Source: Moniliella sp. 'wahieum' (lineage: Eukaryota). Taken from it: 64,000 bases of DNA. A program made the translations under genes and the position numbers. Each line of letters starts with the position of its first letter. Position 1 is the first letter of the stretch. The stretch is from positions 806,001 to 870,000 of the forward strand of contig RSEE01000004.1 of NCBI GenBank assembly GCA_003971905.1, in the 5' to 3' direction. This document shows positions 13,805 to 54,689 of this stretch, one piece after another. Below the pieces are notes generated by a model. The model saw nothing but the letters and a program-made list of their open reading frames with translations, was not told the origin of the DNA and searched no databases.

Positions 13805-16800
13805 GGAGGCAAGAGGGCAGGCAAGTGGGATGGAAGGGCAGAGTGAGGGGTGGTTAAGCAAGAGACAACGGCCAAAGAGAACGAAAGCTACGCAGTCCTT
13901 AGCCGGAAGAAAGATGAGGTTTGGGGGGTTAAGGGGTGGCACGGAGCTCACTATACTGGGGAGGCGGCAAGGGTAATCGACAGCTAAAATGCTGATATGA
14001 GAGAGAGATAACCAGGGTTGTCAGTTACCGGTTACTGGTTACCGAATATCGGATGGAGCCGCGGGGTGTGGGATACGGGAAATGACCCAAGACCAATAAA
14101 AGTGCGATGTTGAGTAACGATGAACTCGAGACCAGGTATTGGGTACCGGATGCAGTAATCGCGATGATGGCTAGCCAATCGGTCGCTTGGGCTTACAGAA
14201 AAACCAGTGCACCCCTGTAAAAGTAGCACATTCCTGTCAGGTCAGAGGATTTTCACTAGCGAGGGTGCGAATGACGAGGGCACTTGGGGATGATTGCGAG
14301 AAAAAGAACGTACCGAGAACTTCGAAACCCTTTCGCCGGTGTCAATCTAGCCAAGTGAAGGCTGTGGCGCAGTTGCTCAACCTGTTGCCGTGAGAACACC
14401 AGGGCAGGGTTGAACGTTGAAGCTGGAAGGCAGAGGAAGTGTAAGTGGGTGAGTACGCTCCAGTCGAAGCATCATCATGCATCAACGCATATCAATCTGC
14501 AGACACCATGCATCGCATGGCAAGGCAAGCATGATACGTGATGATGGTTGCACGTTGAACGTGCACGACGTTCACAGTCCTCCACGCATTCGAGCTGTGG
14601 ATTTCTCCAGGCTGTGGGACGTACAGAGGGAGAGACAGCGGGAAAGAGGTAGCGCTGTCGCAGGGCTCGGTGCTGAGAAGGGTCGACGAGATCAGACAAA
14701 TGTGTTGGGCGGATAACAGGGGCAGGATGGGTAGGGCACTTAGTCGATAAGGCCTAAGGGCGAGGATGTGGGTGTGGGATGTGCGGTGAATGGTGGAAGG
14801 TCTCTGGTGGATGTCAATGATCGATGGTGCCCGTATAGCGAGCGCCTTTTGCTGGCCCAGGCAATCTGCTAGTCACTTGTACAATCACTTGCACAGTCAC
14901 TTCGCCGAGCGTCTAAGCTTGTGAAAGTGGGGTGGGCGGCCGAAAAGCGGGGTGGAAGGGTGGAGTTGCTAGTACAAAGGTTACTGCCCCTGGGTAAGCT
15001 GGTAAGAAAACCTGAGACGGAAGCAGGAAGAGATGCCCGCTGACCCGACGGCGGCGTCCAGCAGAGAAAAGAAGGCAAGGTGGGGGGGAGGAGGGCTAGG
15101 GGCCAAGCAAGGGAGTGGGGGTCGTGGGGCAGACGGCACAGGAGACCCACCGAGCGGACTGCGACACTCGAGAGCCGAGAGGACCCGAAGCGCAGGCCAG
15201 AGCAAACCCCCAAGCCACCTGCGAGGAAGCGTCAGCGCGTACGGGCCCAGGCCCAAGCCTGCAGCATCTCGTATGCGATGAGGCGTAGAAGGGCGTAGCA
15301 AGGCCTCAGTACTTAGTGCACATAGCCAGTGCCTGGCCGCCTGCCTATCTAGCTTTGCTATCTCCTTCTCAGCCCCGTCACCGTGACGGGTGACGCGTGA
15401 CGCGTGAGCTCACCGCTCACCATCACACGCCCAGACGCCCACCCGAACAAAGGAATACATCTCTTTTCCGCCCAGGCGACTGCTGGGCTCTGCTGTGGCC
15501 GCCACAGCAGGATGCAACATTCCGACACGTCAGGCCTCAGGCCAGCCTCAGGGCGCCAGCAACCCAAACGTACGCAAAATGGCCCAAGGCCCAAGCCAGC
15601 ACCACTGGCGTCTGTGCGTGTCACGCGTCACGTGCACCCCCTGCCTCGCCCCCATCATGCACCACACGAGTTTGCGTTGCGGGCCAAGTGCTCGGATGTG
15701 GCTCCAGCGCTCCAGCTCTGGTGCGTGTGACACTGTTGGCCCGTTTGTACGTACTGGCATCCAGATCCAGACCCCCAGCGGTTCAAATAAACGAGTGCTC
15801 AGTTGCTACTTAGTAGTAACTAGTAAGTACACAATTGAGTACGTACTGGGTACTGATTGTCGATTGCCCTATCAAAACGCCCGTTCAAAAAGCCGACATC
15901 GGATGTCTGACGGGCTGACCCGACGGCTCCTATCGACAGCTCAACGCAATGATAAGAACAGGTGCAGCTGTCCAGCCACTGCCCAGCCACCGTTCAGCCA
16001 CAGCCCACCCCGCGGCTCCCTATCCGCACGGGGCTGCTTGCGCAGTCCGATAGCGGTTCAAAAGTCCCCGGTCGCAGGTCACCGGTCACCGGACACCGGC
16101 CTCACCGGTCTCGCATCATCGATGGCCAGTGGCCCCAGCACAGCGCCACTACAACGTAATGCGCAACGCGTAGCAGCGGCTTAAAGCTTAAATTTTAAAG
16201 CTAAGGCTTAGCGCTTAGGCTAAGCTTAGCGTTAAGGCTTAACGCACGTCCGCGTGACGCGTGACTCATGTGCTGCTCCGCCTCAGGCTGAGGCCTCAGG
16301 GCCTCAGGGCCTCAAATATCGGTGATGTCACAAGCCGCGACCTCCTGAATCCATAGCATTGGCGCAACAGGACACTTTCAACAACGCCTGCGCCTACCTG
16401 AAGGCAGTTATGTAATAGCTCCTACCAATGCAAGCAGGAGGGACTCGAGGGTTCGCCAGCAGGCCAGGATATCGGTCAGGCGTCGCTAGGAGACTCCTGG
16501 CACTCGTCTCGTTAATCATTCGCTGCTATCCACTCGCAGATGGATCTGCTCTTTTCTAAAAGAGGACAAAACTTGAAGGGATGGAGCGTCAGTCGCGTGT
16601 CATATAAGCCACGCGCTTCTCACGGGTCTATACAGCCAACTTCTCTACACTGAAGGCGGCCTGGTGCACCTGATGCAAGCACCCTGATGGCCTGCGTGAG
16701 AGGTGTCAATCAACGCCACCGATCCACTTTTCCAAAAGCCTCACTAGACACTGCAATATAATTCACGCTTCTCCGACAGCTTCAACTTTCCCGCCCTTGC

Positions 16801-17242: not shown

Positions 17243-17390
17243 CCTGATCTCCTCTGACAATTCCCCTGGTTCCTTACGCGGGGTTGGCGCTATCAAAAGC
17301 AGCACACGCAGGATGAACGGGTCGGTTTAGGCGCGGCGTTTCGTTGTCCCAACCTTAAGCTCTGTCAATGATATAAATGCAGTATAGAGA
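17243..17390 (-). mobile_element. Repeat family A copy 1 (Helitron-like 5' terminus)
   Basis: Minus strand reads A|TCTCTATACTGCATTTATATCATTGACAGAGCTTAAGGTTGGGACAACGAAACGCCGCGCCTAAACCGACCCG. Homologous to four other copies in the window; homology starts at A|TC. Confidence 0.6.
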
Positions 17391-18753
17391 TACAGCAGCC
17401 CTATGACCATCCCGAAGGCAAGAAACCCGGTTGTGGCTGCGTTTCTGATGTGGTGAAAACAGGTTTATGATGAGAGTGTGGCGATCAACAAACACATGGT
17501 AAGAGCGATCAAAAATGAGGACACACAACAGGGGTAGGGGGCAAAACGTAAACATAATATACAAGTGGGGATGAGTAATGTAGGAGCGTGAAATCGCCCG
17601 GGGCGGGCCATCATACACAACAAGAGTGGTATAAGTGCCGCAGTCGTGTCGCCTCTTTTTATACAGCCCCCATATTGTATTGGGGCGGGGACATGGACAT
17701 GAAGTGAAGTGAAAAGACAATGGAGACAAAAGTACTCTCATCATGTGAGCGAGGGCTCTTAGAAATGGTTTACATTTCTGCATGCCAAAACGGCATTGAA
17801 CGCCTCTCTCCGTCTTGAAGGATGAGGCGATATGAGGCATTGCGGTACTCGATTACGTCCGGATGAGGATGAGGAAACGGTTGTAGGCATTGCGGTTGAT
17901 TGCGGAATATGACTCCTCATTGTCAGGGCTAGTCACCTTGGTAACCCCCGTCGCTCCCTGCAACGCCTTGTGCACCGCTTCGGTCGAAGGCACCCAGACA
18001 CGGGCCACCTCCTCCGCCCCGACTGCAATGTGAATGTGAGCCATGGTGGACAGCGAGTAAGACCTTGAAACATGGACGAACAAGGTGTGTCAATACTTTA
18101 TATGGCAAGTTCTCTGCGATCTCTGCCTTCGGGCGTCGCATCGCGAGAACGGCGGCTCTCTGTAAAGAGGAGTAGTAGTATACTCACTGGAGACAGCACG
18201 CCGTGATGGAGTAGACGAGATGGACCGAGCGTGGGAGTCAACGGGGATGGAGGAGTGAAGGGGAGGTGGATGTGGAGGGAGAGGAGAGGGAGAGACAACC
18301 AGATGTGCCCCCATAGTGTTAAATACAAAATGCCTACTGCATGTGGCGTTGTCGGGGCGCAGCTTAGGAGCAGGGTGTCCTACCCGCCCTAATTAAACTT
18401 CCATACAGCTGTGGTGCGATCCAACTATAGACAAGCCTGCTCGGCCCGGCCTCCCCCCCATAGTGCACCCGTGCTTCCCCGCATCGGCCCAGATTCTGGA
18501 GACAACCCCACATCCTCCTGTCCCCACCCCTCCCCCAACCCCCACCGCCCACACACATCTTTTTCTATGTCTGTAACGTCTGCTCCCCACAGTGTCAGCA
18601 TTACGCTCATCTTTATTACACACACTCACGCATCCACAAAGTTAGTTTTGTGCTCCACGGACAAATGGGTACACAATACATGAGTTCTTTTCCTTCTCAT
18701 TCTTTTACCACCTATTAGTTGTACACACAATCACTTATTCATTCCAAGGCATT

Positions 18754-20472: not shown

Positions 20473-20568
20473 GGAGTAGTGACGCAGCGGTTAGCGTGTG
20501 AGATTGCAATTGCTCGTTTACGAGTAGCTATCATCTTGAAGTCGTTGGTTCGAGTCCGACCTACTCCT
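20473..20568 (+). tRNA. tRNA-Cys(GCA) with ~23-nt intron
   Basis: Acceptor GGAGTAG/CTACTCC; D-arm ACGC/GCGT; anticodon stem TGAGA/TCTTG around TT-GCA-A + intron; T-arm GTTGG-TTCGAGT-CCGAC; followed by a T-run terminator. Confidence 0.92.
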
Positions 20569-31876: not shown

Positions 31877-31937
31877 GGCGTAGCGTTTCCCTGTCCCAGC
31901 TTTAAGCTTTGTCAATGATATGGATGCAGAGTAGAGA
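31877..31937 (-). mobile_element. Repeat family A copy 2 (Helitron-like 5' terminus)
   Basis: Minus strand A|TCTCTACTCTGCATCCATATCATTGACAAAGCTTAAAGCTGGGACAGGGAAACGCTACGCC. Confidence 0.6.
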
Positions 31938-32158
31938 TGCATAGCGCTTTTCCCATTTTAATATATAGTGTAGAGATAGCCTCTGACGGATGACCGCCAA
32001 TTCGTGGACCGCGAGAAGGAGCGAGAGCATCGAGAATAAACGAGCGCAGAAGACATGGAGCAAGAAAGGCGTACTGATTGTCATCACAGGGGGGGAAGAG
32101 CGAGAGAGGCGCGAAACACAAAACTTGAAGCAGTCGTGGGAAGGGGAATCATTAATCA

Positions 32159-39020: not shown

Positions 39021-39535
39021 CGCGTGCATATTAGGCCGTGCGTCTTCTGCGTGCGGACCACTAGTACACGCATCTAATACACACACTCTCAACCGTAGAG
39101 ATCCCTTACTACTACGCACACATAGTCGTCATCAATGGGTACACCTTCTGTTGGGTCCTGACCCTCGGTCCTATGCTCCTAATGGTGAAGTAATGTTACT
39201 TTCTTCATTTTTCGTCTTCCATATCGGCATATATCCATTCCCAATGGACTTGTGCATATTACGGTTGTTAGTTTTCCTGAATGTGGCATCGACTTTTTCA
39301 GTATAATGTTGTCTCTACGAACTGGTTTTTCTCATCAATATAGCCAGTGCTCTTAGCTTGTCTCTCTCTCTCTTTATTATGTGGACAGATGGCAAATGAG
39401 CATCACATCCGTATAGTGATGACGGCTCTGTATGGGAAAAAAAAGAGTGGAAGCGAGAGTGAAGCTACTAGTGAGGCCCTTTTCACAACACATAGTATCT
39501 TGGTTGGGGTTTGGCGGCATTATCGTACCAAGTAA

Positions 39536-39623
39536 CACACGCCAGATGAACGGGTCGGTTTAGGTGTAGCGTTTCCCTGTCCCATCCTTAAGCTCTGTCG
39601 ATGATATGGATGCAGTACAGGGG
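39536..39623 (-). mobile_element. Repeat family A copy 3 (Helitron-like 5' terminus, degenerate end)
   Basis: Minus strand A|CCCCTGTACTGCATCCATATCATCGACAGAGCTTAAGGATGGGACAGGGAAACGCTACACCTAAACCGACCCGTTCATC. Confidence 0.6.
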
Positions 39624-40699
39624 TAGTGACGATGCGGAGAGGGGAAGAGTTGGATTTTTTGATGTGGCCCGCGGCGAGTGTGACGGTGCGGTGGAGGCCT
39701 GAGCGGGCTTAGAGATCTGACGGCAAATCACATCTGCTATTAGATGCACACAGCTATCCCATGAAGTGTTTGTCACATGTCAGTACTCAGTCTACGTACT
39801 CAGTGTTATCCGTCCTTTGAACAAGAGCAATGCATCATAGCCATTCTATATTCTACCACACGGTTACGGATGAGATATATTCCGGTTACCCATTTAACCG
39901 ATTTTTTGCATGTTAAAAGTCAGGACTCCACGGTCCTTAGTAACTACTAGTAACTACTAGTGACTAGTTAGTCATGCTGCCTGCTATCTGTCACACACAA
40001 GACTTCCTACGCGTCAGATTATGTTGGGTTCCCGTCCCTATTCCATAGCCACAAAACAGCAAACAACACATTTAGCCGTTCCGCGGGCCGGGGGGGACGA
40101 AGAGCCCATTCTTCAGTTGGCTCACCGGTCGTCCCCCTTGGCCAAAATCATGGCCCGCCGTCATGGCAATTGAAGGGAGCTTCGCCGAGTACGTCTGTAT
40201 GTATCCAACACATTCTGTGAGTTGTGAGTTGTGAGTACAGTAGAGTGTACTTTAGGATACTGAGTACTGAGTACTGACAATTGGTGATAATACTATGTGT
40301 CTCCAGGCCCCAGGTCAGAGCTTCCAAGCTTCAAGCTTCTCAAGCTTCACGCGTTGCTACACTAGTGACAATTTAGCGTCTACTAATACTAGCTAGTGCT
40401 AGAAGTAATGACCACCAAGTACTAATCAAAAGTCGTCAAACGCACCGGCTCTCATAGATCATATATCACAAATATGTCCCAGAAGTCAGGGTCTCGGTTC
40501 CGCGAATTTCGCCGCAGACAGGCAACGGAGGTGGAACAACGAACTGATGGAAAGGAATGGCTCGAATGGGAATAAGACGCAGGATTTGTTGAGGAGGACG
40601 ACAAGAAGTCTTTGTAAGGTCTATCCGACAGACAATGAAACAGAGAGTATACCGATCGTCAGCGCCCCATCTACACGTTTGTTTAGATGACAACATCAA

Positions 40700-42245: not shown

Positions 42246-42392
42246 TGATCTCCTGGCGATTCCCCTGGCTCCTTAAGTGGGATTAGCGCTACCAAAAGCA
42301 GCACAAGTAAGATGAAGGGGTCGCTTTAGGGGTACGTTTCTCTGTATCAGCCTTAAACTCTGACAATGATGGTATGGATTGCAGAATATAGA
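42246..42392 (-). mobile_element. Repeat family A copy 4 (Helitron-like 5' terminus)
   Basis: Aligns over ~150 bp with 17243-17390 (tgatctcct...attcccctgg...gcgcta.caaaagcagcac...gatgaa.gggtcg.tttagg...ccttaa.ctctg.caatgat...gcag). Begins A|TC on the minus strand. Confidence 0.6.
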
Positions 42393-42567
42393 TAGAGGAT
42401 TTTATCTAATAGAGATGGAGTTGGGGCGTCACATGTCACATAATGCAGCGTCACAAAATCATGTCTTCACTGCATGAGCGGACGTCGGGAAAACCATCAC
42501 ATCAGCGCAATGTCACACACACTGCGATGCCATGTATTGTAGTCCTTTTGGCAGAGACCGTTGGGCA

Positions 42568-42637
42568 TCTCTATTCTCTCCCATGTCATTGGCAGAGCTT
42601 AAGGTTGTTGGGACACAGAAACGCTGCGCCTAATCCG
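42568..42637 (+). mobile_element. Repeat family A copy 5 (Helitron-like 5' terminus), plus strand
   Basis: A|TCTCTATTCTCTCCCATGTCATTGGCAGAGCTTAAGGTTGTTGGGACACAGAAACGCTGCGCCTAATCCG. Confidence 0.6.
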
Positions 42638-42766: not shown

Positions 42767-42952
42767 ATCACCCAAAAAGCTGTATAAAGTTCCTTCAACA
42801 GTTTTGGATAGTGGCCACATGAGGTTGAGCGTTTTGGCCCAAGAGGTCAAGCACTTGGTAATCACCCAAAAATGCGTATAAAGTGCCTTCAAGAGTTTTG
42901 GTACTGTGGCCACATGAGATTAAGCGTTTTGGCCCAAGAGGTCAAGCACTTG
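42767..42952. repeat. Tandem duplication of a ~94-bp unit (2 copies plus decayed partial)
   Basis: atcacccaaaa...gtataaagt.ccttcaa.agttttgg...gtggccacatgag.tt.agcgttttggcccaagaggtcaagcacttg occurs at 42767 and 42861. Confidence 0.85.
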
Positions 42953-44422
42953 ACCCACCTGAGGTCAACCGGTTTGGCCACATGCGCTCAAGCGCTTGGC
43001 CCAAATGGGCCAAACGCTTAGCTGTTGATTGGATGCGTGCTTGTAGGCTTTCTAACCGGCTGGCTGATGGGGCTGGCATCGATCCAGAACTACTAGATTT
43101 ACACAGGCAGAGGGTAGGTATTTTTTAGGTATAGAATGCATTCGAAGATCGCTGGGAAGCGATGACACGGCAACCACGGTAGGTGTGACGTCAGGCGGAA
43201 GCGGAAGCACCACAACATAGTAGAGCAGCGAGCGGTACAGAAAGTGGCAGTTAGTGTGGGGGACGTGCGCACTAGGGGAAGCTGGCCAAGTGTGCAGCAG
43301 CATAGGGTTAGCGAGAGACACAGAAGATGTGCGACGGACTCACGGGTCAGGCGATCAAGACGGCCAGTAGCGGGGCAAGCGGGATGAAGTCGGAATGCAC
43401 ATGGTAGGGCGAACAAGGTCAGGAACAGCGTTGGCATATAACAGAGGGACGTCGTACGACGCGCGAAACAGGTCAGATGAGTTGAGGCGAACAAGGCGAG
43501 ACGAACCAACCGTGGGATTCCGTGCATACAGCAGCTGGGCCAGACAGTGTCAGTGGGGCAGGACACTCCAAGCGCGAAGTACGGAGGACGTACGATAGCA
43601 AGGCAGACCAGCCAAGCGAGAGGACCTGAGGCGAGGGCAAAATGGAACCAGACGGACAAGGCCGTAGGTGAGCGAAACGGTGCATGCACGTCATGCATGC
43701 GACCCACAAGGTCAGCAGAAGTGTGGGGAATGCGGAGGGAAGCGGGCACGTACGATGGCTCTGCGGGATCAGGTGAAACGAGGGCAAGATGGTCTGCAGG
43801 GGGGAGTCTGTGTACGCGGGGTCAGCAACAGAGCGCTGGTGAGGAAAAGAACACATACGACAAAAGCAAGCATGCAGACAGTCTGAGGGGGACGGGGAGG
43901 AGAGGCACAGGGGGGCGTCCAACAGCGATACTGACGAGGCGAGGAGGGCAGAGTGCGGCGGGAGGGGGAGAATAGAGACGTACGGCAGCAATGCAGACCA
44001 GGCGCGGAGAACCGAGCGATGGAGGCCGGATGAGGACGGCGGGCAGTAAGCAGTGCAGGCAGCAACGATGGTGATGTTGGTGGCCAGGGGAAGAAGATGG
44101 TGCTGTTGCGCGTGGCACAGGGATACTGGTTGCGGGCGCAATGAGAGGGGCGGTGGTGAGGAGACAGGATGCAACCACAGAGGAGCAGGAGGTTAAAAAG
44201 AGGCGCGTGTGGCGCAGCCAATCTGTGCGCACAGGCCATCTGGGCTACGCCAGGGGCCCTATAGGCAATCCTGGGCCACACCAGGGGCCTATAGGTAAGC
44301 TTTATATCTGTCTAACGCGCGCACCACTAGCGGCCCCCTGCAGCAGCGTTCGGAGGGTCTAATCATCAATCAGAGCGCTCTTTTGAGTTTGCCTATTTGC
44401 GACTTGCTGTAGTACTGTTGTC

Positions 44423-44673
44423 TGTTGCGACGGTGACTAGTTACTACTAATGCCTTCACCGAACGCGGCGCATTTGCAGCTTCTCTAGCCCGAGCCTCCG
44501 CGGGCTCCGAAGACTGGTGATGCGCGCGTACCCGAGAGTAAGCCAACGACTAGTAGCCTTGTCCAGTAGCCCTCGTCCTGCTTCCTATCTCGCCCGCAAT
44601 CGATCGCCTACGCTACTGTCCCAAACGCTTCAGCATCCATTGCGGTCTCCATAGCCGGGTGAATCGCTATACA
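44423..44673 (+). mobile_element. Short LTR, probable solo LTR (family B copy 1)
   Basis: TGTTGCGA...TCGCTATACA termini; aligns along its length with 49529-49808; flanks TGTC/GGTC (4-bp TSD with 1 mismatch). Confidence 0.7.
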
Positions 44674-46799
44674 GGTCACGATTATCCTCACTGAGCTATC
44701 TAGTGACGAGTGACTAGTGACCTACGGTGTTACATCAAAAGTCAAGGCGATAGCCCCTGGTCGAGGTCAAGGAGCTCCGATGTTGTAACCATTCCATTTA
44801 GCTTTTGTGTTGGCTTTGTCCATGATCTCCGCATCCCTAAGGTATTATAAGCCTCTGTTGCTCTTTCATGCACCTTGTATTAAGCATGTCGTGGCTGTGG
44901 CGTATTCGACCACCACACTGCCAACACTATAGTGCTACCACATCACCCATCAGGGTGGCCATCTGGACTGCGCCACTCTCATCTTCAGATAGGGGATGAC
45001 GAATGTAATACGCCTTGGAAGGGCATCAAAGAAGCGGGAGAGAGCGTGCGTCTCTGGGAGAGGGGCAGTTTTAAGGTTAGAGGGGACAAGGTTTAAAAGG
45101 TTAGGGGGGCCGTGATCGTCTGCCGGACCTGTGACAAAAAAGCACCCACCAATGCATATCATATGTACAACCCATCTCGCCCATCCTTTTACCAAGTCGC
45201 CACCGCCATGTTTCGACATCGGCTCACACAAATGCCGACCGATGGAACGAGCCGCACACGTGCACAATAGGACAGACGCATCTGCTGTACCTTTTCCCGC
45301 GGCCTGGTCCACGGTGAAGCAGGACGAGGGGTTGCTGTACCAGTCCCTGCTTGCCCAGTTCGACCGATGTCCGGTTTCATGCACTCAAGCACACGAAGGT
45401 GCGCAGGTACAGCCACAACGTGGCGCTGGGTGCGAGGCTGGGGGCCAGTCACGCCATTGACGAGGTGGCCGAAGATGCGAGCATGCCCCAACCACCTGAC
45501 GCATGCTCGCCTTCCCCTGCTTCCCGTGCCTCCTCGCCTGTAGACACTACCATGGCCGAGGACGAGTTATGCCAGACGTAGCCCAGTGTTTCCTTTGGAC
45601 CACCTTCAAGAGCCCACGGGCGCGTCCTTTGCCGCCCGCGGACGCATGACAACCCGCTCGGCGCCCCGAATGAGCGTGTCGAGCAAATCCGCAACCAAGA
45701 GACTGATATTCATCTGCGATCTCAACACGGAGGGTATCCCTGGCACAGAGGGCACCAATATCCGAGCTAGGGGTTTGTTGGCTAACCTAAAGACTGGGGT
45801 TGGGAAGGATGTGCGCACTATGCTTGTTGCTCTCCCATTCGCGGCGCTCCCATCCTCGAGACACTCTGATGGCGTCGATATTCCACGAGTAGTGCTGGCC
45901 CCCAGCCAATAACAGGATTGCAACGAAGGGTGCCATGCACCTGTGGGACAAGCGCGCCAAGAAGAAGACACCTGCCGTGGCCGCTGTCGGAGGAGGGGGC
46001 AACAGCGACGACTCTTCGGACAGTGACAGTGATTGATGCGAGAACCAAATGGACATGCATTGCGCGATGAGGATGAGTATAGGTTTGGTGGCAGTCGTCA
46101 GTCATCGTAGCCAGACCATAGGGTAGTGCGCATCCCGGACCCATCAGCCGGAACCTCTCGAGACGTGAGATGGGGCGATGGGCTGCGCTTTGATATGATG
46201 CGCATGCACATAAACGCTCTTTTGCCGGCGAACGAGCCAGGTGACGGATGACTGTCATGCGTCCCACGCGCAGGGGCATGGCCGAAGGGAAGGGGCGGTT
46301 ATGGAGTAAGAGGCCAGACGGTGAGGCGTGGGTTGCAGCCCCAAATGGATGTCGCCACAAGGGTCGGGTCTCTGCCACCGGCCTCTCAGCCCATTCCGCT
46401 TATGCAGCCGATTTACCCATTTTCCAATCCCGCCATGACCCATGTTTCAATTTTTCACACCCGCCCGTGACGGTGGCCCAGCACCCAGTCTATCGACATC
46501 CGCGCGACGAGGGTGGCGAAGCCCCAGCAAACCGGGCCGTAGGACCACAGTAGTTCCTAGTAATACATAATGCATAACTGCAGAACTGCAGAACTGACCA
46601 TAGAGGTCAATGCACAGAAGAGCAGCTGTAGAGGATCACAATACTTTAACATACGCATTTTAGGAAGGATGGGGGCACCAAAAATGGACCAGACGTTGGG
46701 TATCAAGATGGAAGGAGAGCCAGTAGCCTGTTAGGCTACTAGTGTCCGTCATCACTGAGGAAAATCTGGAGAGATGGTGGCACAGGACACGATCGGCTA

Positions 46800-48500
46800 T
46801 CAAGAGAGGCGGCAGTCCTCCCTCCCCCTCCCAAACTACTTGCGCTGGAAATAGAAACCTAATGATGGGTGACGACGGCTCGCTTGGGACGAGAAACCGG
46901 TACACCTCATCTTGGGTTTCCCGTCCTTATCACTGTACCGGGATGGCCGCTTGAACCCCAAATTACCCTTCCTCGGTGTTTTAAGAGAGGTGGGACGAGT
47001 GATGGGTCACCATGTGTTTGGTGCTTTTGTGCCACACACATCGTGCTAGGAGGGGACGGGGAGGGGGATTAGCCTTGTGGCTTGCCGCCGGGAGAACTCT
47101 TGGAGCGCCTGGGCCATTTTGATCGTGGCACATGCTCTATTTCCTCAGCAGTAATTGGGGGTTGGCCTGTATCGGGTGAACCAGATCCTTGACAGCAAGG
47201 GGGGTAAGGAGATGGTGCGGAACTTACCTCTACAAATGCACCAACAAAGACTTTGCCTTGGCTCCGCAGGTGTCGCATTTGGTTGTGCCGCGAGCGTCGC
47301 ACAAGCAAGCATGGATCCTGCGACCGTACAATTGACGCAGGTTGTACTATTACGGACGCCTGTGCTTCGCACCAAAGCACTCGTCCGGATCAACCCCTCG
47401 ACAGAGCAGACAGGTAGAGTAGCCTGTGGCGTGGCAGTGTGAGCACTCGACCATGACTTCGAATTCAGGCAGGCGGAACGTCTTCTTGACCTTGGCTTTT
47501 TCAGTAGGGATGTGAGAGCTGGTGTCCAAAGGAAGGAGCCAAGCTGAGGGCAATGTTGGCACTTGCTCCACTGTGTCCATCATCTGAGCTCGCTCGGATG
47601 GTGGTTCAGAAGCCAAGGGCTTCCACCGGATTCCCTATTTTCAAGCACCGCCACTCCACGGATCACGCTTTGCTCTGTTACATGCTCAATTTTTACCTTT
47701 AGTGAAGCCATGAGCTCCTCTTCTTCTTCGGGGAGAATGGGCTTGAACCGTGCCCGCACAGCCTTGACCACCGCAGGTGGATTTTCGTGAGGTTTGCGCA
47801 CTTTTTCCTTGCCAGGATCAGCACGATGGGTCAAAAAAGGGTATTGCTTCACAATGCGATCCCGAAGTTCGTTCTTTGTCGGAGGTCGCACCTCGTGGTT
47901 CAAAAAGGCGAACTGCACATCCGATACGGATACGTTGGAAAACAGCTTGGCATCAGCAGCCCCTTCTTGAGAGTATAGCAAAGCTGCACTTGGGATTTCA
48001 TTATCCTCCCTCTGTTTCCCTTCGACCCACTCTCGATTCGTTTTGATAAATTCGACCCTTTCTTGTTGGCGCGAGTCATTCTCCTCGAGTGCGGGGGTAG
48101 ACAGTGACCGATTTGGACTCAGCTCGTGGGAAGATACAGAGCAGGGTACCTGGGTGTTTGCAACGCCGGCCATACCTTGGCGATGACGATGATAAGATAA
48201 ATAACCACTAGCTAGGACTTTGCGAGAGACTCCATTTGTTAGCAAAAAACCAACCTGGATAGGGCGTTGGTATTCAGCTTAAGAGGGCTTCATACCTTCA
48301 GGAGCGATGTTCGCCTGTAGCATGGAGCACAAGTCCTCAATTTCGGCCTCAAGAGGTGGATCAATGGTAAACTGGGGGATAGTCAGACCGGGAACGCTGA
48401 GAAAAGTGGACTGTGTGTGGCTGATCATTAGGAGGGGTGGGAGGGTCTCGCTCAAGAGGGGAGCTATTGACGGCGGTGAAAAGGTAGGGAGGATCATGGT
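46800..48500 (-). CDS. CxxC-repeat zinc-binding protein (DnaJ-type Zn finger repeats; SSUH2-like), multi-exon
   Basis: VECSHCHATGYSTCLLCRGVDPDECFWC...TCVNC...ACATC...KCDTCG. Introns at ~48294 (GTATGA...GCTAAC...TAG) and ~47228 (GTAAGT). Ends uncertain. Confidence 0.55.
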
Positions 48501-48966
48501 GGAGGTTGGGCATGAGAAGGACGCTCATGAGGGACGTGCGGCAAAAAGAGGGAAACTGTCGAGAGAGGTTTTGGCTGTGCCCTGCGTTAAAAACGGGCGC
48601 GAAGAACTGCAGGAGTTCACAGGCCCGACAAGCAGAAGATACAGAGGTAATATATTTTCTAGGAAAATCAGTAGTGCACTTTAATGTTAACAGTATGAAG
48701 CGAAAAGAGTCGGTTGGCACTTACTGTCGGCTGCATGGGGAAAACCACCATATCATAATAATTCTGCCCCAACAGTTCGTAATTCATCAGACACGATGGG
48801 GAAGGGATTGTACTTTACCCAACTCGCGCAGTTGTGGGTGTTTATAGCTGTAGTGTTGGTCGTCAGCCAGGTTATTTCCCGATATAGCCTGTGCTGTTCA
48901 ATTATTCTGAGTGTCTCTTTTGGCCTGTGCCGTTCCCGCATCATCCATCATCGATCATCACTTATA

Positions 48967-49072
48967 GGCGAAACACATGGGAAGACGCACGCGGGGCGAA
49001 TCACGCGGGGCGAAACACATGGGGCGACACACGTGGGGGCGAATCACGCGGGGCGAAATCAGGCAAAACACG
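48967..49072. repeat. ~14-bp minisatellite (GGGGCGAAWCACRY), about 7 degenerate units
   Basis: ggcgaaacacat...ggggcgaatcacgc ggggcgaaacacat ggggcgacacacgt gggggcgaatcacgc ggggcgaaatc. Confidence 0.8.
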
Positions 49073-49528
49073 TTAAGCTTTAAGGTTTAACGTTCACTCA
49101 TGCACCTGCATGAGCATGAGCGCATGAGCGCTGTTGAACCTGAGCCACAGGAGCCTTGTGACATGTGACATGTGAATGAAGTCGGAAAGCAAAACCCATC
49201 CAGGCGGCATAGTAGTCCGTTTCGGAGATTCCGACGTTGATTATCAATGATCGATGATCTATCCTCCTTCCTCGGCTCCGGTTGCTGGTTAATATACGCG
49301 CGTTGCGCATTACGCGTTACGCTAGTTACTATTACTGGCTTATTTACTCTCGTTCCCCCCCCGCACTGTTGTGACAGTGACATGCGATGTGGCGGGGAGA
49401 GAGCGCTGCGGGTGCAGCAACAGTGTCTTCGCGGTGAACCAGTGAGACCACGTCTGAGGTCAGAGGGCCTGACCGGCGGACCGGCTGACCGCCATAATAG
49501 CCTACTGAGCCTGCCTGAGCCTGAAGAG

Positions 49529-49808
49529 TGTTGCGACGGTGACTGGCTTCACCGATCGCGGTGCACTTCCGGCTTCATTAGCTCCGAGGCTCCGCGGGCT
49601 CCGAGTGCTGCTGATGCGCGCGTACCAGCGTAAGCCAACGACTAGTAGCCTTCTCCTGTAACCTTATTTTGTCCTGCTTCTCCTACCGCCAACGCCTAAT
49701 ATCTCTCGCCCGCAATCGATCGCCTACGCTACTGTCCTAATCGCTTCAGCATCCATTACGGTCTCTATAGCAGAGTGGCCAGGACGCGGCCAGGACGTCT
49801 TCGCTGCA
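49529..49808 (+). mobile_element. Solo LTR (family B copy 2) with perfect 4-bp TSD
   Basis: AGAG|TGTTGCGA...TCGCTGCA|AGAG; TG...CA termini with short imperfect inverted repeat; paralog at 44423. Confidence 0.8.
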
Positions 49809-50119
49809 AGAGGTCGAGGAGGTGAGTTCGACTAATTTGACCCCCCCCCCCCGCAGACACATCCCTTCAATTCGGCGCTCTCGGGGGGGCATGGTTGTGA
49901 CGTGTGCGTGATGTGTGATGCATGTGTACGTTTTCACTTTTAAAAGGGGTAGTATGAGTCAGTACCTGTCAGTAGACTCATACTCCGTATTCATACTCGT
50001 ATTAATAGTTTACCCACGAGAATATTTGTATGGTATTCATCCTCAATATTCAATGCTCAGGCCCTGAGCGCCCTGAGCGCTCAGCTGAGCAGTCAGACTG
50101 ACTAGTAACTGTGACAGTT

Positions 50120-50172
50120 TGTAGCGACGTCCTGCGCCATCCCCTGCTATGGAGACTGCAATGAATGTGAAT
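50120..50172 (-). mobile_element. Truncated LTR end (family B copy 3), inverted
   Basis: Reverse complement cattcattgcagtctccatagcagggg...caggacgtcgctaca matches the right end of copies 1 and 2. Confidence 0.7.
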
Positions 50173-51818
50173 GGCTGAGCGCTGAGCGAGAGGCTCCCAA
50201 TGTTTTCATATATATCTACGAATCATTTCTCGCGCGCAGAGCCTATACTGTAAAATAACTTTTGTTTTCTGTGGTCCTCTCTTTTAATTCGTGGCATGAT
50301 GCATGAGAGGGCACGCACCTTTTTTTGATAGAACCGTCGTCACTTGTATCCGCAACAGCTCTTCGAGCTCGCCAGGCTCACCCCAACACACAAATGTAGT
50401 AATCACATATGTGTGGTCATCGCAACACAGATCATACGGCTTGAACGTTTGTTGGGGTTTTGGTCGAATATCTGTAGGCTCGGTTCCCGACGGCTATCCT
50501 TATTCTTCATTCGAATAGCAAGCTACATTCGAGACTTTCTCATCTGCGCCTGCATTTCCTCTCTACCCCCAAAGTATATATAGTACCTGTGGTCTTCTCT
50601 TTTTATCACTCTCTTCTGACCTTCGTTCGCGGTGAATATTATATGTTCTTCTTCAATTTTCTTCGTCTCTTCTTCCTTTTTTTGATACAATTCCGACATC
50701 GGTTTTTGAAGACATATGAAGCCACTGTGTCAGGAAATGGGGAGATGGAGGAAAGAGGGGCAGATGAATTCTTGGATACATGTATGGACGGAGTGGAGGT
50801 ATATTACGTGTACCTCCTATAAGGAATGGGGCACAGTTGAGAGAGGTGGAGATATGATCTCCCAACCGATAAGAATCACGCCATACAGGCCTAGTGTTGG
50901 CCCAAGGGCCCCTAGTACGGCGTGAGTTTGAAGACACACGGTCTTCTCACGACTGTACACTTTCGTCTTTTATGGCTCCCAAAAAGAGTTTCCATATATG
51001 GCCATATTAGCGGGAGAAGATGACCTCTTCCCCTCCCCGACCCCGTATCAACAGAGCGAAACATATTTTTTGGCTCCCACATAACTGGGCTTACCACACC
51101 GTCGGACATTCCTCCTTACACAACCACAACACAAAAGTAAGTATGACTACCACAACAACAAAGACCTGAAAGTGTCACATAATATTGATGACAGTCGACC
51201 ACGCGGATCATATAGAACCCTCTATTGTGTCTCTTTTCAGTCGCGCGTAGTGTCAAGCACTTCACAGGACCCAAACATGTGGCCGTTTTCGGATCGCATC
51301 ATATGTCGATCGTATGTACCAGGAGAGGAATAAAAAGAGATGGTTAAAATGACTTCATTCGCTCTCTGACTTGGACGGATTGAATATCGATTTGCTTAGT
51401 AGAGGCGCGCTACGCCAATGCTTTATAGGGGTAGGTGATAAACCAAAGACTATACACCAACAATTACAAAACTCATACACGCGCTTGGCAATCTGTACTG
51501 AATGGTTGCTACTTAGCCTTCCTTTCTTGGACCTGACAGACACTTTTTAGGAGAAGAATCCAATAGCATCAGGAAGTAGAACCAGTCTAGCACAACGGTA
51601 TAGAATCACCCAGAACGTTGGTCAATTGTGGTGTTCTCTTATGATTAAAAAGAAAAAAAAGAAGTAGAGAATTGAGAATGACTTTCCCATTTCTTGAAGA
51701 TCAACGTCAACAGATTGTTGTGCGTTGTTGAGATACTGAAGACAGGAAAGAGAGCTGCTCGGCCTCGAAAACCTCATATGGTTGCCGAAATCTTTAGACG
51801 ATCTGGCACGATAGTCGC

Positions 51819-53946: not shown

Positions 53947-53982
53947 GAGTTGGCCGGGAGGCATCTCAATATCTTTTTCCCA

Positions 53983-54173
53983 ACTCCTCTGGCCTTCTGG
54001 CTTAGATCAAGTGTAGTATCTGTTCTTATTCAGTTTGACAACTGTTACGCTGGGCACTGCCCAGCTGTACTTGTCATTCCACTCTTTGTGATTTCGGCTT
54101 CCATCGCCTGTGCTTGCACATGAGGTTCACGAGTGCCGCTTCTCTTACACTCTGGTTGCTAGCGCTCACCACA
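53983..54173 (+). ncRNA. U2: U2 spliceosomal snRNA
   Basis: GGCCTTCTGGCTTAGATCAAGTGTAGTATCTGTTCTT (stem I and branch-point-recognition GTAGTA); stem IIa CAGT/ACTG with downstream complement TTGTCA; stem IIb GCTGGGC/GCCCAGC; 3' hairpins. Confidence 0.93.
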
Positions 54174-54689
54174 ATCTTTTCCTCTTCATCATGCTCCTCG
54201 GGCTGGTCGTTTCTATGAGTTACTTTTTCTTGTTGCCCACGTTCTTTTGTGATAGTAGATCTAGCTTCGTACGTGCGTGGTTGGCATTCTCTTATTCATC
54301 ACAGCCGCTCCACGGGTCTCAGTTGGTATGTCGCCAGGGCAATCCCCTTCGTTGCCACCGGTGCTTGTGCATCGGCCTATTCTTCCGGTTGTTGGGAGGA
54401 TCGTCCCTTATTCACCCCGAGTCATTTGGCCCTCTTTATGGGCCTATGCGTTCTATTAGCAACATGCTCACCTATAATATCAGCAGCCGTTATGCATTCC
54501 ATTCCGAACCGTTAGGGACATGGCGCACCCGTCCTCCCTCTAAAGACCCGTATTAGGTGCATCAGGCTTGAGGTGAAGGTGTAACAGGTCAATGGTAAAA
54601 ATGCACGCCTTAGCGGCACAAAGAATGGGTTTTCACAGTTGAAGAAGCTTTGTTGAGCGAAATGTACCAAGGTGGTGTCCTTCAAAGCC

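Follow-up and report, generated by a model that had tools for sequence, protein, structure and literature searches.

Throughout the stretch of Moniliella sp. 'wahieum' DNA analyzed here (64,000 nt, hereafter “the window”), non-coding sequence carries the product of a unit event that adds 7 nt: a 5-mer with T-N-A (TNA) at one end is copied, and two nucleotides mirroring its other end stand between the two copies. One member of a dispersed repeat family in this window holds 13 additional nucleotides directly after such a 5-mer, and its paralog, some 5 kb away, does not. The explanation of this “filled” and “empty” pair that we favor, and which we regard as about evenly poised between right and wrong, is that the 13 nt are a derived insertion, that their first 7 nt came from the window-wide process and that the last 6 nt came from a later, second event. 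A link of the first 7 nt to the 7-bp process is likely; the last 6 nt may or may not share it. The site itself is a decayed and ambiguous example of the rule and says little about mechanism, for which the weight lies with the window-wide counts.

A window-wide 5+2 rule at TNA sites

Words of the form W + reverse complement of the first two nucleotides of W + W, where W is a 5-mer, occur 115 times on both strands of the window against 7.4 expected, and in 85 of these W has the form nnTNA, for which the expectation is 0.37. The mirrored nucleotides are found only on the side away from TNA, with no separate TNA-side class. Exact period-7 tandems of at least two copies are likewise abundant (39 in the window, compared with 3.15 in dinucleotide shuffles), and 26 of the 39 consist, in some rotation, of T-N-A plus a 4-nt palindrome, an arrangement that a random heptamer would show with a chance of 2.7%. 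In the orientation of the copied 5-mer (nnTNA), the middle base is G in 34 cases, C in 26, A in 18 and T in 7, so that TTA is the rarest center.

The lengths of the exact period-7 runs that obey the rule are informative as to what is duplicated. At lengths of 10 to 15 nt there are 3, 3, 21, 17, 5 and 6 such runs, with no more than 1.6 expected at any length; the runs thus begin at 12 (5 + 7) and not at 14, which rules out a plain 7-bp target duplication as the source of the window-wide pattern. A hAT-type 8-bp duplication less one nucleotide was rejected on the same onset. The sequence-only reading had regarded the filled and empty repeat copies as the best internal evidence for a mechanism; that place belongs to the run onset at 12 and to the count of 85 against 0.37, which are far stronger.

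Two TNA triplets with the same middle base, separated by a palindrome, occur 77 times in the window against 2.7 expected, and the match extends by 2 nt on at least one side in 69 of the 77 (left only in 28, right only in 25, both in 16 and neither in 8). Neighbors that differ in the middle base are fewer (16 against 6.2 expected). These were found at 3 of the 5 sites with a CTAG core and at 13 of the 88 sites with other cores (Fisher P = 0.034), a difference that is uncorrected for the 16 cores and on which we do not lean.

Within the window, none of 12 paralog indels is 7 or 14 nt long (self-BLAST yielded 7 pairs with 11 gaps), but these alignments are too short in total to give the count any power. 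Searches of a paper library returned, among the entries listed, no description of such a TNA pattern in fungi, and passages of a paper on Cryptococcus transposons (PMC9942834) contain nothing on such footprints. The 7-bp TNA insertions saturate the non-coding DNA here; to date them and establish their polarity, filled copies are rightly set beside empty ones.

The repeat pair and its 13-nt difference

The dispersed direct repeat is about 240 bp long. Copy 1, the filled copy, lies at 44423-44663 (+), where homology begins at TGTTGCG, and copy 2, the empty copy, lies at 49529-49779 (+); the alignment of a third copy, found on a contig from a metagenome, sets in at precisely 49529. The first two are about 5.1 kb apart (three collinear blocks, 5092-5116 nt apart, in the repeat search) and are paralogs, with an E value of 1e-51 in blastn and 87.6% identity in a MAFFT alignment of the slice 44423-44663 (28 mismatches in 225 aligned columns). 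A fragment of the repeat, from its 3' part, stands in inverted orientation at 50128-50171 (-); its identity is 87% with copy 1 over 31 nt (E 6e-4) and 80% with copy 2 over 45 nt (E 0.007).

From 49529, copy 2 reads TGTTGCGACGG-TGA-CT-GGCTTCACC; from 44423, copy 1 reads TGTTGCGACGG-TGA-CT-AGTTACTACTAAT-GCCTTCACC. These letters are exactly those that the sequence-only reading had given for the filled and empty forms. Both copies have the 5-mer TGACT (TNA plus 2 nt), copy 1 at 44434-44438 (+) and copy 2 at 49540-49544, and the extra 13 nt of copy 1 directly adjoin the 3' side of this 5-mer at 44439-44451. Because a T flanks both sides, the indel can be placed equally well as TAGTTACTACTAA at 44438-44450. 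It had been described as a “heptamer unit,” a term that does not suit an indel of 13 nt, which is neither 7 nor 14. The pair has five internal gaps in all: copy 2 is without 13 and 2 nt, and copy 1 is without 1, 4 and 20 nt. The four other indels (1, 2, 4 and 20 nt) likewise include no multiple of 7.

The empty site lies in a short inverted repeat at 49533-49559 (+), whose arms, GCGACGGTGA and TCACCGATCGC, enclose a 6-nt spacer (CTGGCT) that holds the site. The arms, of 10-11 nt, are kept in both copies. As DNA, copy 2 folds at -9.5 kcal/mol (z -3.39, with none of 200 shuffles folding as well), and copy 1 (44427-44470), with its arms retained and its spacer at 19 nt, folds at -5.6 kcal/mol (z -1.84). 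A break in the hairpin loop is a plausible trigger for the insertion.

Fit of the site to the rule

After TGACT, the rule predicts AG + TGACT. The first 7 inserted nucleotides, AGTTACT (44439-44445, +), match this at six of seven places: AG, at 44439-44440, follows CT and is the reverse complement of this non-TNA end of the 5-mer, and TTACT is an imperfect second copy of TGACT (4/5). Only 22 of the 16384 possible heptamers do as well (a chance of about 0.0013). An AG + T-N-A + CT scheme holds for these first 7 nt only, with the middle base differing (TTA for TGA); the last 6, ACTAAT (44446-44451, +), do not fit, are unexplained by the rule and form, with the letters preceding them, a word that recurs at 15810-15824 (-). 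Taken as a second unit, ACTAAT agrees at four of seven places and is one base short. Had two clean units been inserted, no fewer than 4 changes would have had to follow within 14 nt, where about 0.87 would be expected at half the divergence of the pair; the Poisson probability of at least 4 changes is 0.012 at half divergence and 0.10 at full divergence.

The site, TGACTAGTTA, is one of the 16 different-N cases of the window; different-N words elsewhere include TGACTAGTTA again at 39961 and TGACTAGTAA at 50099. About 270 nt downstream of the site, at 44710-44721 (+), stands GTGACTAGTGAC, which is what the rule yields from TGACT without any flaw. Two candidate local templates, GACTAGTAGCCTT at 44546-44558 and GTGACTAGTGAC at 44710-44721, were dropped as over-fitting of short strings.

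Copy 2 reads GGTGACTGGCTTCACC across the site, with no period-7 repeat and no tandem of any kind. Since the empty allele has no repeat, slippage is excluded as the starting event, and the claim that the insertion did not grow from a pre-existing tandem was upheld. The end result does resemble that of microsatellite slippage in being short, tandem-like and of period 7 (TGA, TTA and TAA, 7 nt apart); it differs in the lack of a tandem in the empty allele here and in the onset of rule-obeying runs at 12 rather than 14. Sequence of the rule class can thus arise at a place where the paralog is free of any repeat.

How could such a site have come about? In the reading that we favor, an insertion would have occurred right after TGACT, within the spacer of the short inverted repeat and in copy 1 only. 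The 5-mer with its T-N-A end would have been duplicated with 2 nt mirroring its other end placed in between, giving TGACT + AG + T(G>T)ACT. Formally, this would be a 5-bp duplication plus two palindromic (P-type) nucleotides on one side, such as might arise if a staggered break or a transposon excision left one flank closed as a hairpin that was then cut 2 nt away from the tip. A separate event at a later time would have supplied the last 6 nt, whether as another unit that has since decayed or as a small filler.

A more specific proposal, that this fungus has an undescribed activity that breaks and reseals DNA (one that targets T-N-A, duplicates 5 nt and adds 2 mirrored bases) and that the 13 nt are the trace of its acting here twice in succession, is tentative and rather doubtful. 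If it were true, the activity would have outlasted the spread of the repeat family, and new period-7 DNA would have been made from non-repetitive sequence; in that case the recurring words with a CTAG core would be a sign of an additional rule of the process or of a hypermutable center.

Recurrence of the inserted word

The word ACTAGTTACTACTAA, made up of 3 flanking nucleotides and 12 of the 13 inserted ones (44436-44450 in copy 1), occurs a second time in the window at 15810-15824 (-), with 15/15 identity. When up to 2 mismatches are allowed, a 14-mer from the site is found at four places (15810-, 39947+, 44437+ and 49322+), as opposed to 0.08 expected, and none of 100 shuffles reached four. 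The match at 49322-49341 (+), 207 nt upstream of the empty site, is a near copy of the filled site (17/20 nt) and its tail, ACTGGCTT, has the letters of the empty site. At 39947-39970 (+), a further CTAG-core lattice carries CTAGTAACTACTAG and TGACTAGTTA.

The surroundings of these words are themselves of some complexity. The lattice at 15804-15835 (-) comprises four unlike period-7 units (ACTTACT, AGTTACT, ACTAAGT and AGCAACT) and includes an 11-nt palindrome, CTACTAAGTAG, as well as the exact 15-mer of the insert. At 39938-39975 there is a period-10 array, TAGTAACTAC x2.9 (the palindromic heptamer AGTAACT plus ACT), which runs into TGACTAGTTA; this array hints at 3-nt additions inside CTAG-core lattices.

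The unit had been proposed to be “written de novo” at the TGA; this now sits poorly with the presence of the same 15-mer elsewhere in the window, which de novo writing does not predict. Independent de novo events do not predict the shared ACTAA after AGTTACT, which leaves a one-step copy, an extra rule for CTAG cores or a shared mutational bias. The exact and near recurrence of ACTAGTTACTACTAA makes a one-step copy of an existing word a live rival, albeit one that we consider unlikely: a break after TGACT would have been filled, in a single templated insertion, with about 12-13 nt copied from a CTAG-core word elsewhere (15810-15824 (-) or a similar one), the 3-nt ACT serving as priming microhomology and the rule having acted at the donor rather than here. 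Such a copy accounts for 12 of the 13 inserted nucleotides plus ACT at full identity, is in line with the four sites within 2 mismatches of the 14-mer, and needs at most one further change to yield both TTA in place of TGA and the ACTAA, compared with at least 4 in the two-step reading; further, the near copy at 49322-49341 (17/20 nt) has CT and GGCTT in common with the sequence to either side of the empty site. Set against this are the distance of the best donor seen (28.6 kb), when the template for such insertions usually lies no more than tens of bases from the break, and a 3' junction without microhomology. Moreover, because the rule fixes AG + TNA + CT after any TNACT, short CTAG-rich lattice words could converge under it, and the other matches are weak singly (a score of 25, where the 99th percentile for random 150-nt windows drawn from the window is 22.5).

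Polarity of the difference

Evidence on which copy changed comes from the one public sequencing run found to hold words of the stretch (share 0.06), a food metagenome that contains a relative. The third copy of the repeat is a single contig of that run (163 nt, depth 2.76, from the other organism), whose letters are itemized only beyond 31 nt of the site. It aligns to 49529-49635 with 14 mismatches and no gaps, and so is without the 13 nt; beyond 49635 it stays in the repeat and is closer to copy 1, from 44538 on. Its alignment and the similarity between copies 1 and 2 set in at exactly the same base. At the six informative places, the third copy sides with copy 1 three times (49569, 49577 and 49578) and with copy 2 three times (49566, 49571 and 49589). 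At the junction of its two alignments (49635, then 44538), about 6 nt are re-read with GC between them, beside GTAAGCC, seemingly a small tandem duplication of the contig's own by TAA.

The lack of the 13 nt in the third copy favors an insertion in copy 1, and the even 3:3 division leaves almost no shared branch on which a deletion common to copy 2 and the third copy could have occurred. An insertion in copy 1 is thus the likelier polarity, as judged from three copies only, one of them a low-depth contig of another organism, and the earlier proposal that copy 1 gained the sequence after the copies had diverged is probably correct, the third copy being gapless over the site and evenly divided at the informative places.

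The opposite history, in which the repeat family had the 13 nt from the start and a copy that lost them gave rise to copy 2 and the third copy, appears quite improbable. It would draw on the fact that the three known copies are unrooted, so that the root could lie on the branch of copy 1, and on the filled-looking sequence (17/20 nt) that lies 207 nt upstream of copy 2. Two of the three copies are empty, however, the third is equidistant from the other two, only a 1-nt repeat (T) would have been available to guide a precise loss of 13 nt, and in the empty form the inverted repeat regains its compact shape, with 6 nt of spacer, all of which tell against it. That the 13 nt are an ordinary complex indel of non-coding DNA, separate from the 7-bp process and fitting it in part by chance and by the reader's search for such a fit, is very improbable, given that a 6/7 match (about 0.0013) multiplied by a dozen indels and two site types still comes to about 0.03, that the word TGACTAGTWA stands at two other lattice sites and that the window is saturated with the 7-bp process, even though 13 is not a multiple of 7, the four other indels of the pair have no heptamer character and none of the 12 paralog indels of the window is 7 or 14 nt long.

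Two pattern scans of metagenomes, based on conserved cores of the repeat, returned no loci. Contigs of the food-metagenome run cover 44303-44407 and 44767-46376 with about 90-97% likeness and none covers 44408-44766, so that they give no evidence either way on the orthologous site. Of the 29 indels in the contigs of this close relative over 44303-46376, the 12 listed include small ones of 1, 2 and 15 nt but no 7-nt indel.

As this site shows, single sites can be complex, with imperfect copies and words that recur elsewhere; the mechanism is therefore to be read from many polarized events across the genome and not from this one.

Comparison with known systems

Excision of hAT elements (such as Ac/Ds) proceeds through hairpins on the flanks and leaves footprints with P nucleotides. 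This flank-hairpin chemistry, which Transib and RAG also use, is the nearest known to the rule. The footprints and coding joints that it yields are like the unit described here in that a short flank duplication is joined via nucleotides that mirror the adjacent flank. They are unlike it in these respects: no element, terminal inverted repeat or transposase was seen in this window; the mirrored nucleotides here are one-sided, standing only away from TNA; and at this particular site the copy is imperfect and is followed by 6 further nucleotides that are unexplained.

Templated or “filler” insertions arise at double-strand breaks joined end to end by repair of the polymerase-theta type. The 13 nt resemble such filler in their identity to sequence elsewhere (15/15 nt) and in the 3-nt microhomology at one junction. 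They differ from it in that the sole exact donor seen is 28.6 kb off, the other junction is without microhomology and the donor is itself a member of the 7-bp lattice class.

Among the known superfamilies, Transib invites comparison on the length of the duplication. In the passages available from its description (PMC1131882), Transib is the only eukaryotic superfamily with 5-bp target duplications, it inserts at GC-rich sites and, among fungi, it was found only in soybean rust. The 5-nt word duplicated here thus has the length of the Transib target duplication, as given in those passages (PMC1131882). In contrast to the GC-rich sites that they report for Transib (PMC1131882), a T-N-A is needed here at one end of the 5-mer.

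Nature of the repeat

The two repeat copies had been labeled as LTRs, which is not sustained by what lies between them: no retroelement domain is present there and a gene of cellular type is. This gene, at 46855-48356 (-) by the tblastn span of its homologs (P0001-P0005), has five homologs of 565-686 aa (E 7e-40 to 1e-28), without a Pfam domain. Retroelement families (gag, protease, reverse transcriptase and integrase) were matched by none of the 62 stop-to-stop frames of at least 50 aa in 44600-49600 at E<=0.1, and no reverse transcriptase, integrase, transposase or other mobile-element protein was found among the 121 frames of at least 130 aa in the window. No Rfam family was found at E<=1 within 44200-50300; window-wide, Rfam gives only U2 and a tRNA, so the repeat is not a known RNA gene or a relative of the SINE type.

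Both copies open with TG at the 5' end, which is also where the alignment of the third copy sets in; at the 3' end the boundary is blurred, with homology fading at 44661-44675 in copy 1 and at 49777-49784 in copy 2. A check for a target duplication showed no evident counterpart, downstream of copy 2, of the TTGTC that lies upstream of copy 1. In the place of a polypurine tract, only GAAGAG precedes copy 2. The pair does resemble an LTR pair or solo LTRs in its size (about 240 bp), its direct orientation, the TG at its start, the spacing of 5.1 kb and its membership of a multi-copy family with a third copy in a relative. Unlike an LTR retrotransposon, however, the pair has no gag, reverse transcriptase or integrase signal between its members (0/62 frames), encloses the cellular-type gene instead, shows no evident flanking duplication and has an ill-defined 3' end. 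From its sequence features, the pair is best described as a dispersed repeat and not as the LTR pair of one element; its copies may be solo LTRs or some other transposon remnant.

Other features of the window

A second family of dispersed repeats is present at 17245-17395, 42246-42397, 39530-39620, 31877-31941 and 42583-42637 (-), with 77-91% identity over 53-155 nt and with indels of 1-3 nt only. At 42767-42952 a 95-nt unit is duplicated in tandem, with about 90% likeness between its two copies; beyond it, a related periodicity of 45 nt continues to 43007. The window also holds a tRNA match at 20473-20568 (+), 96 nt long and probably with an intron, and a gene for U2 spliceosomal RNA at 53982-54174 (+), with a score of 109 bits.
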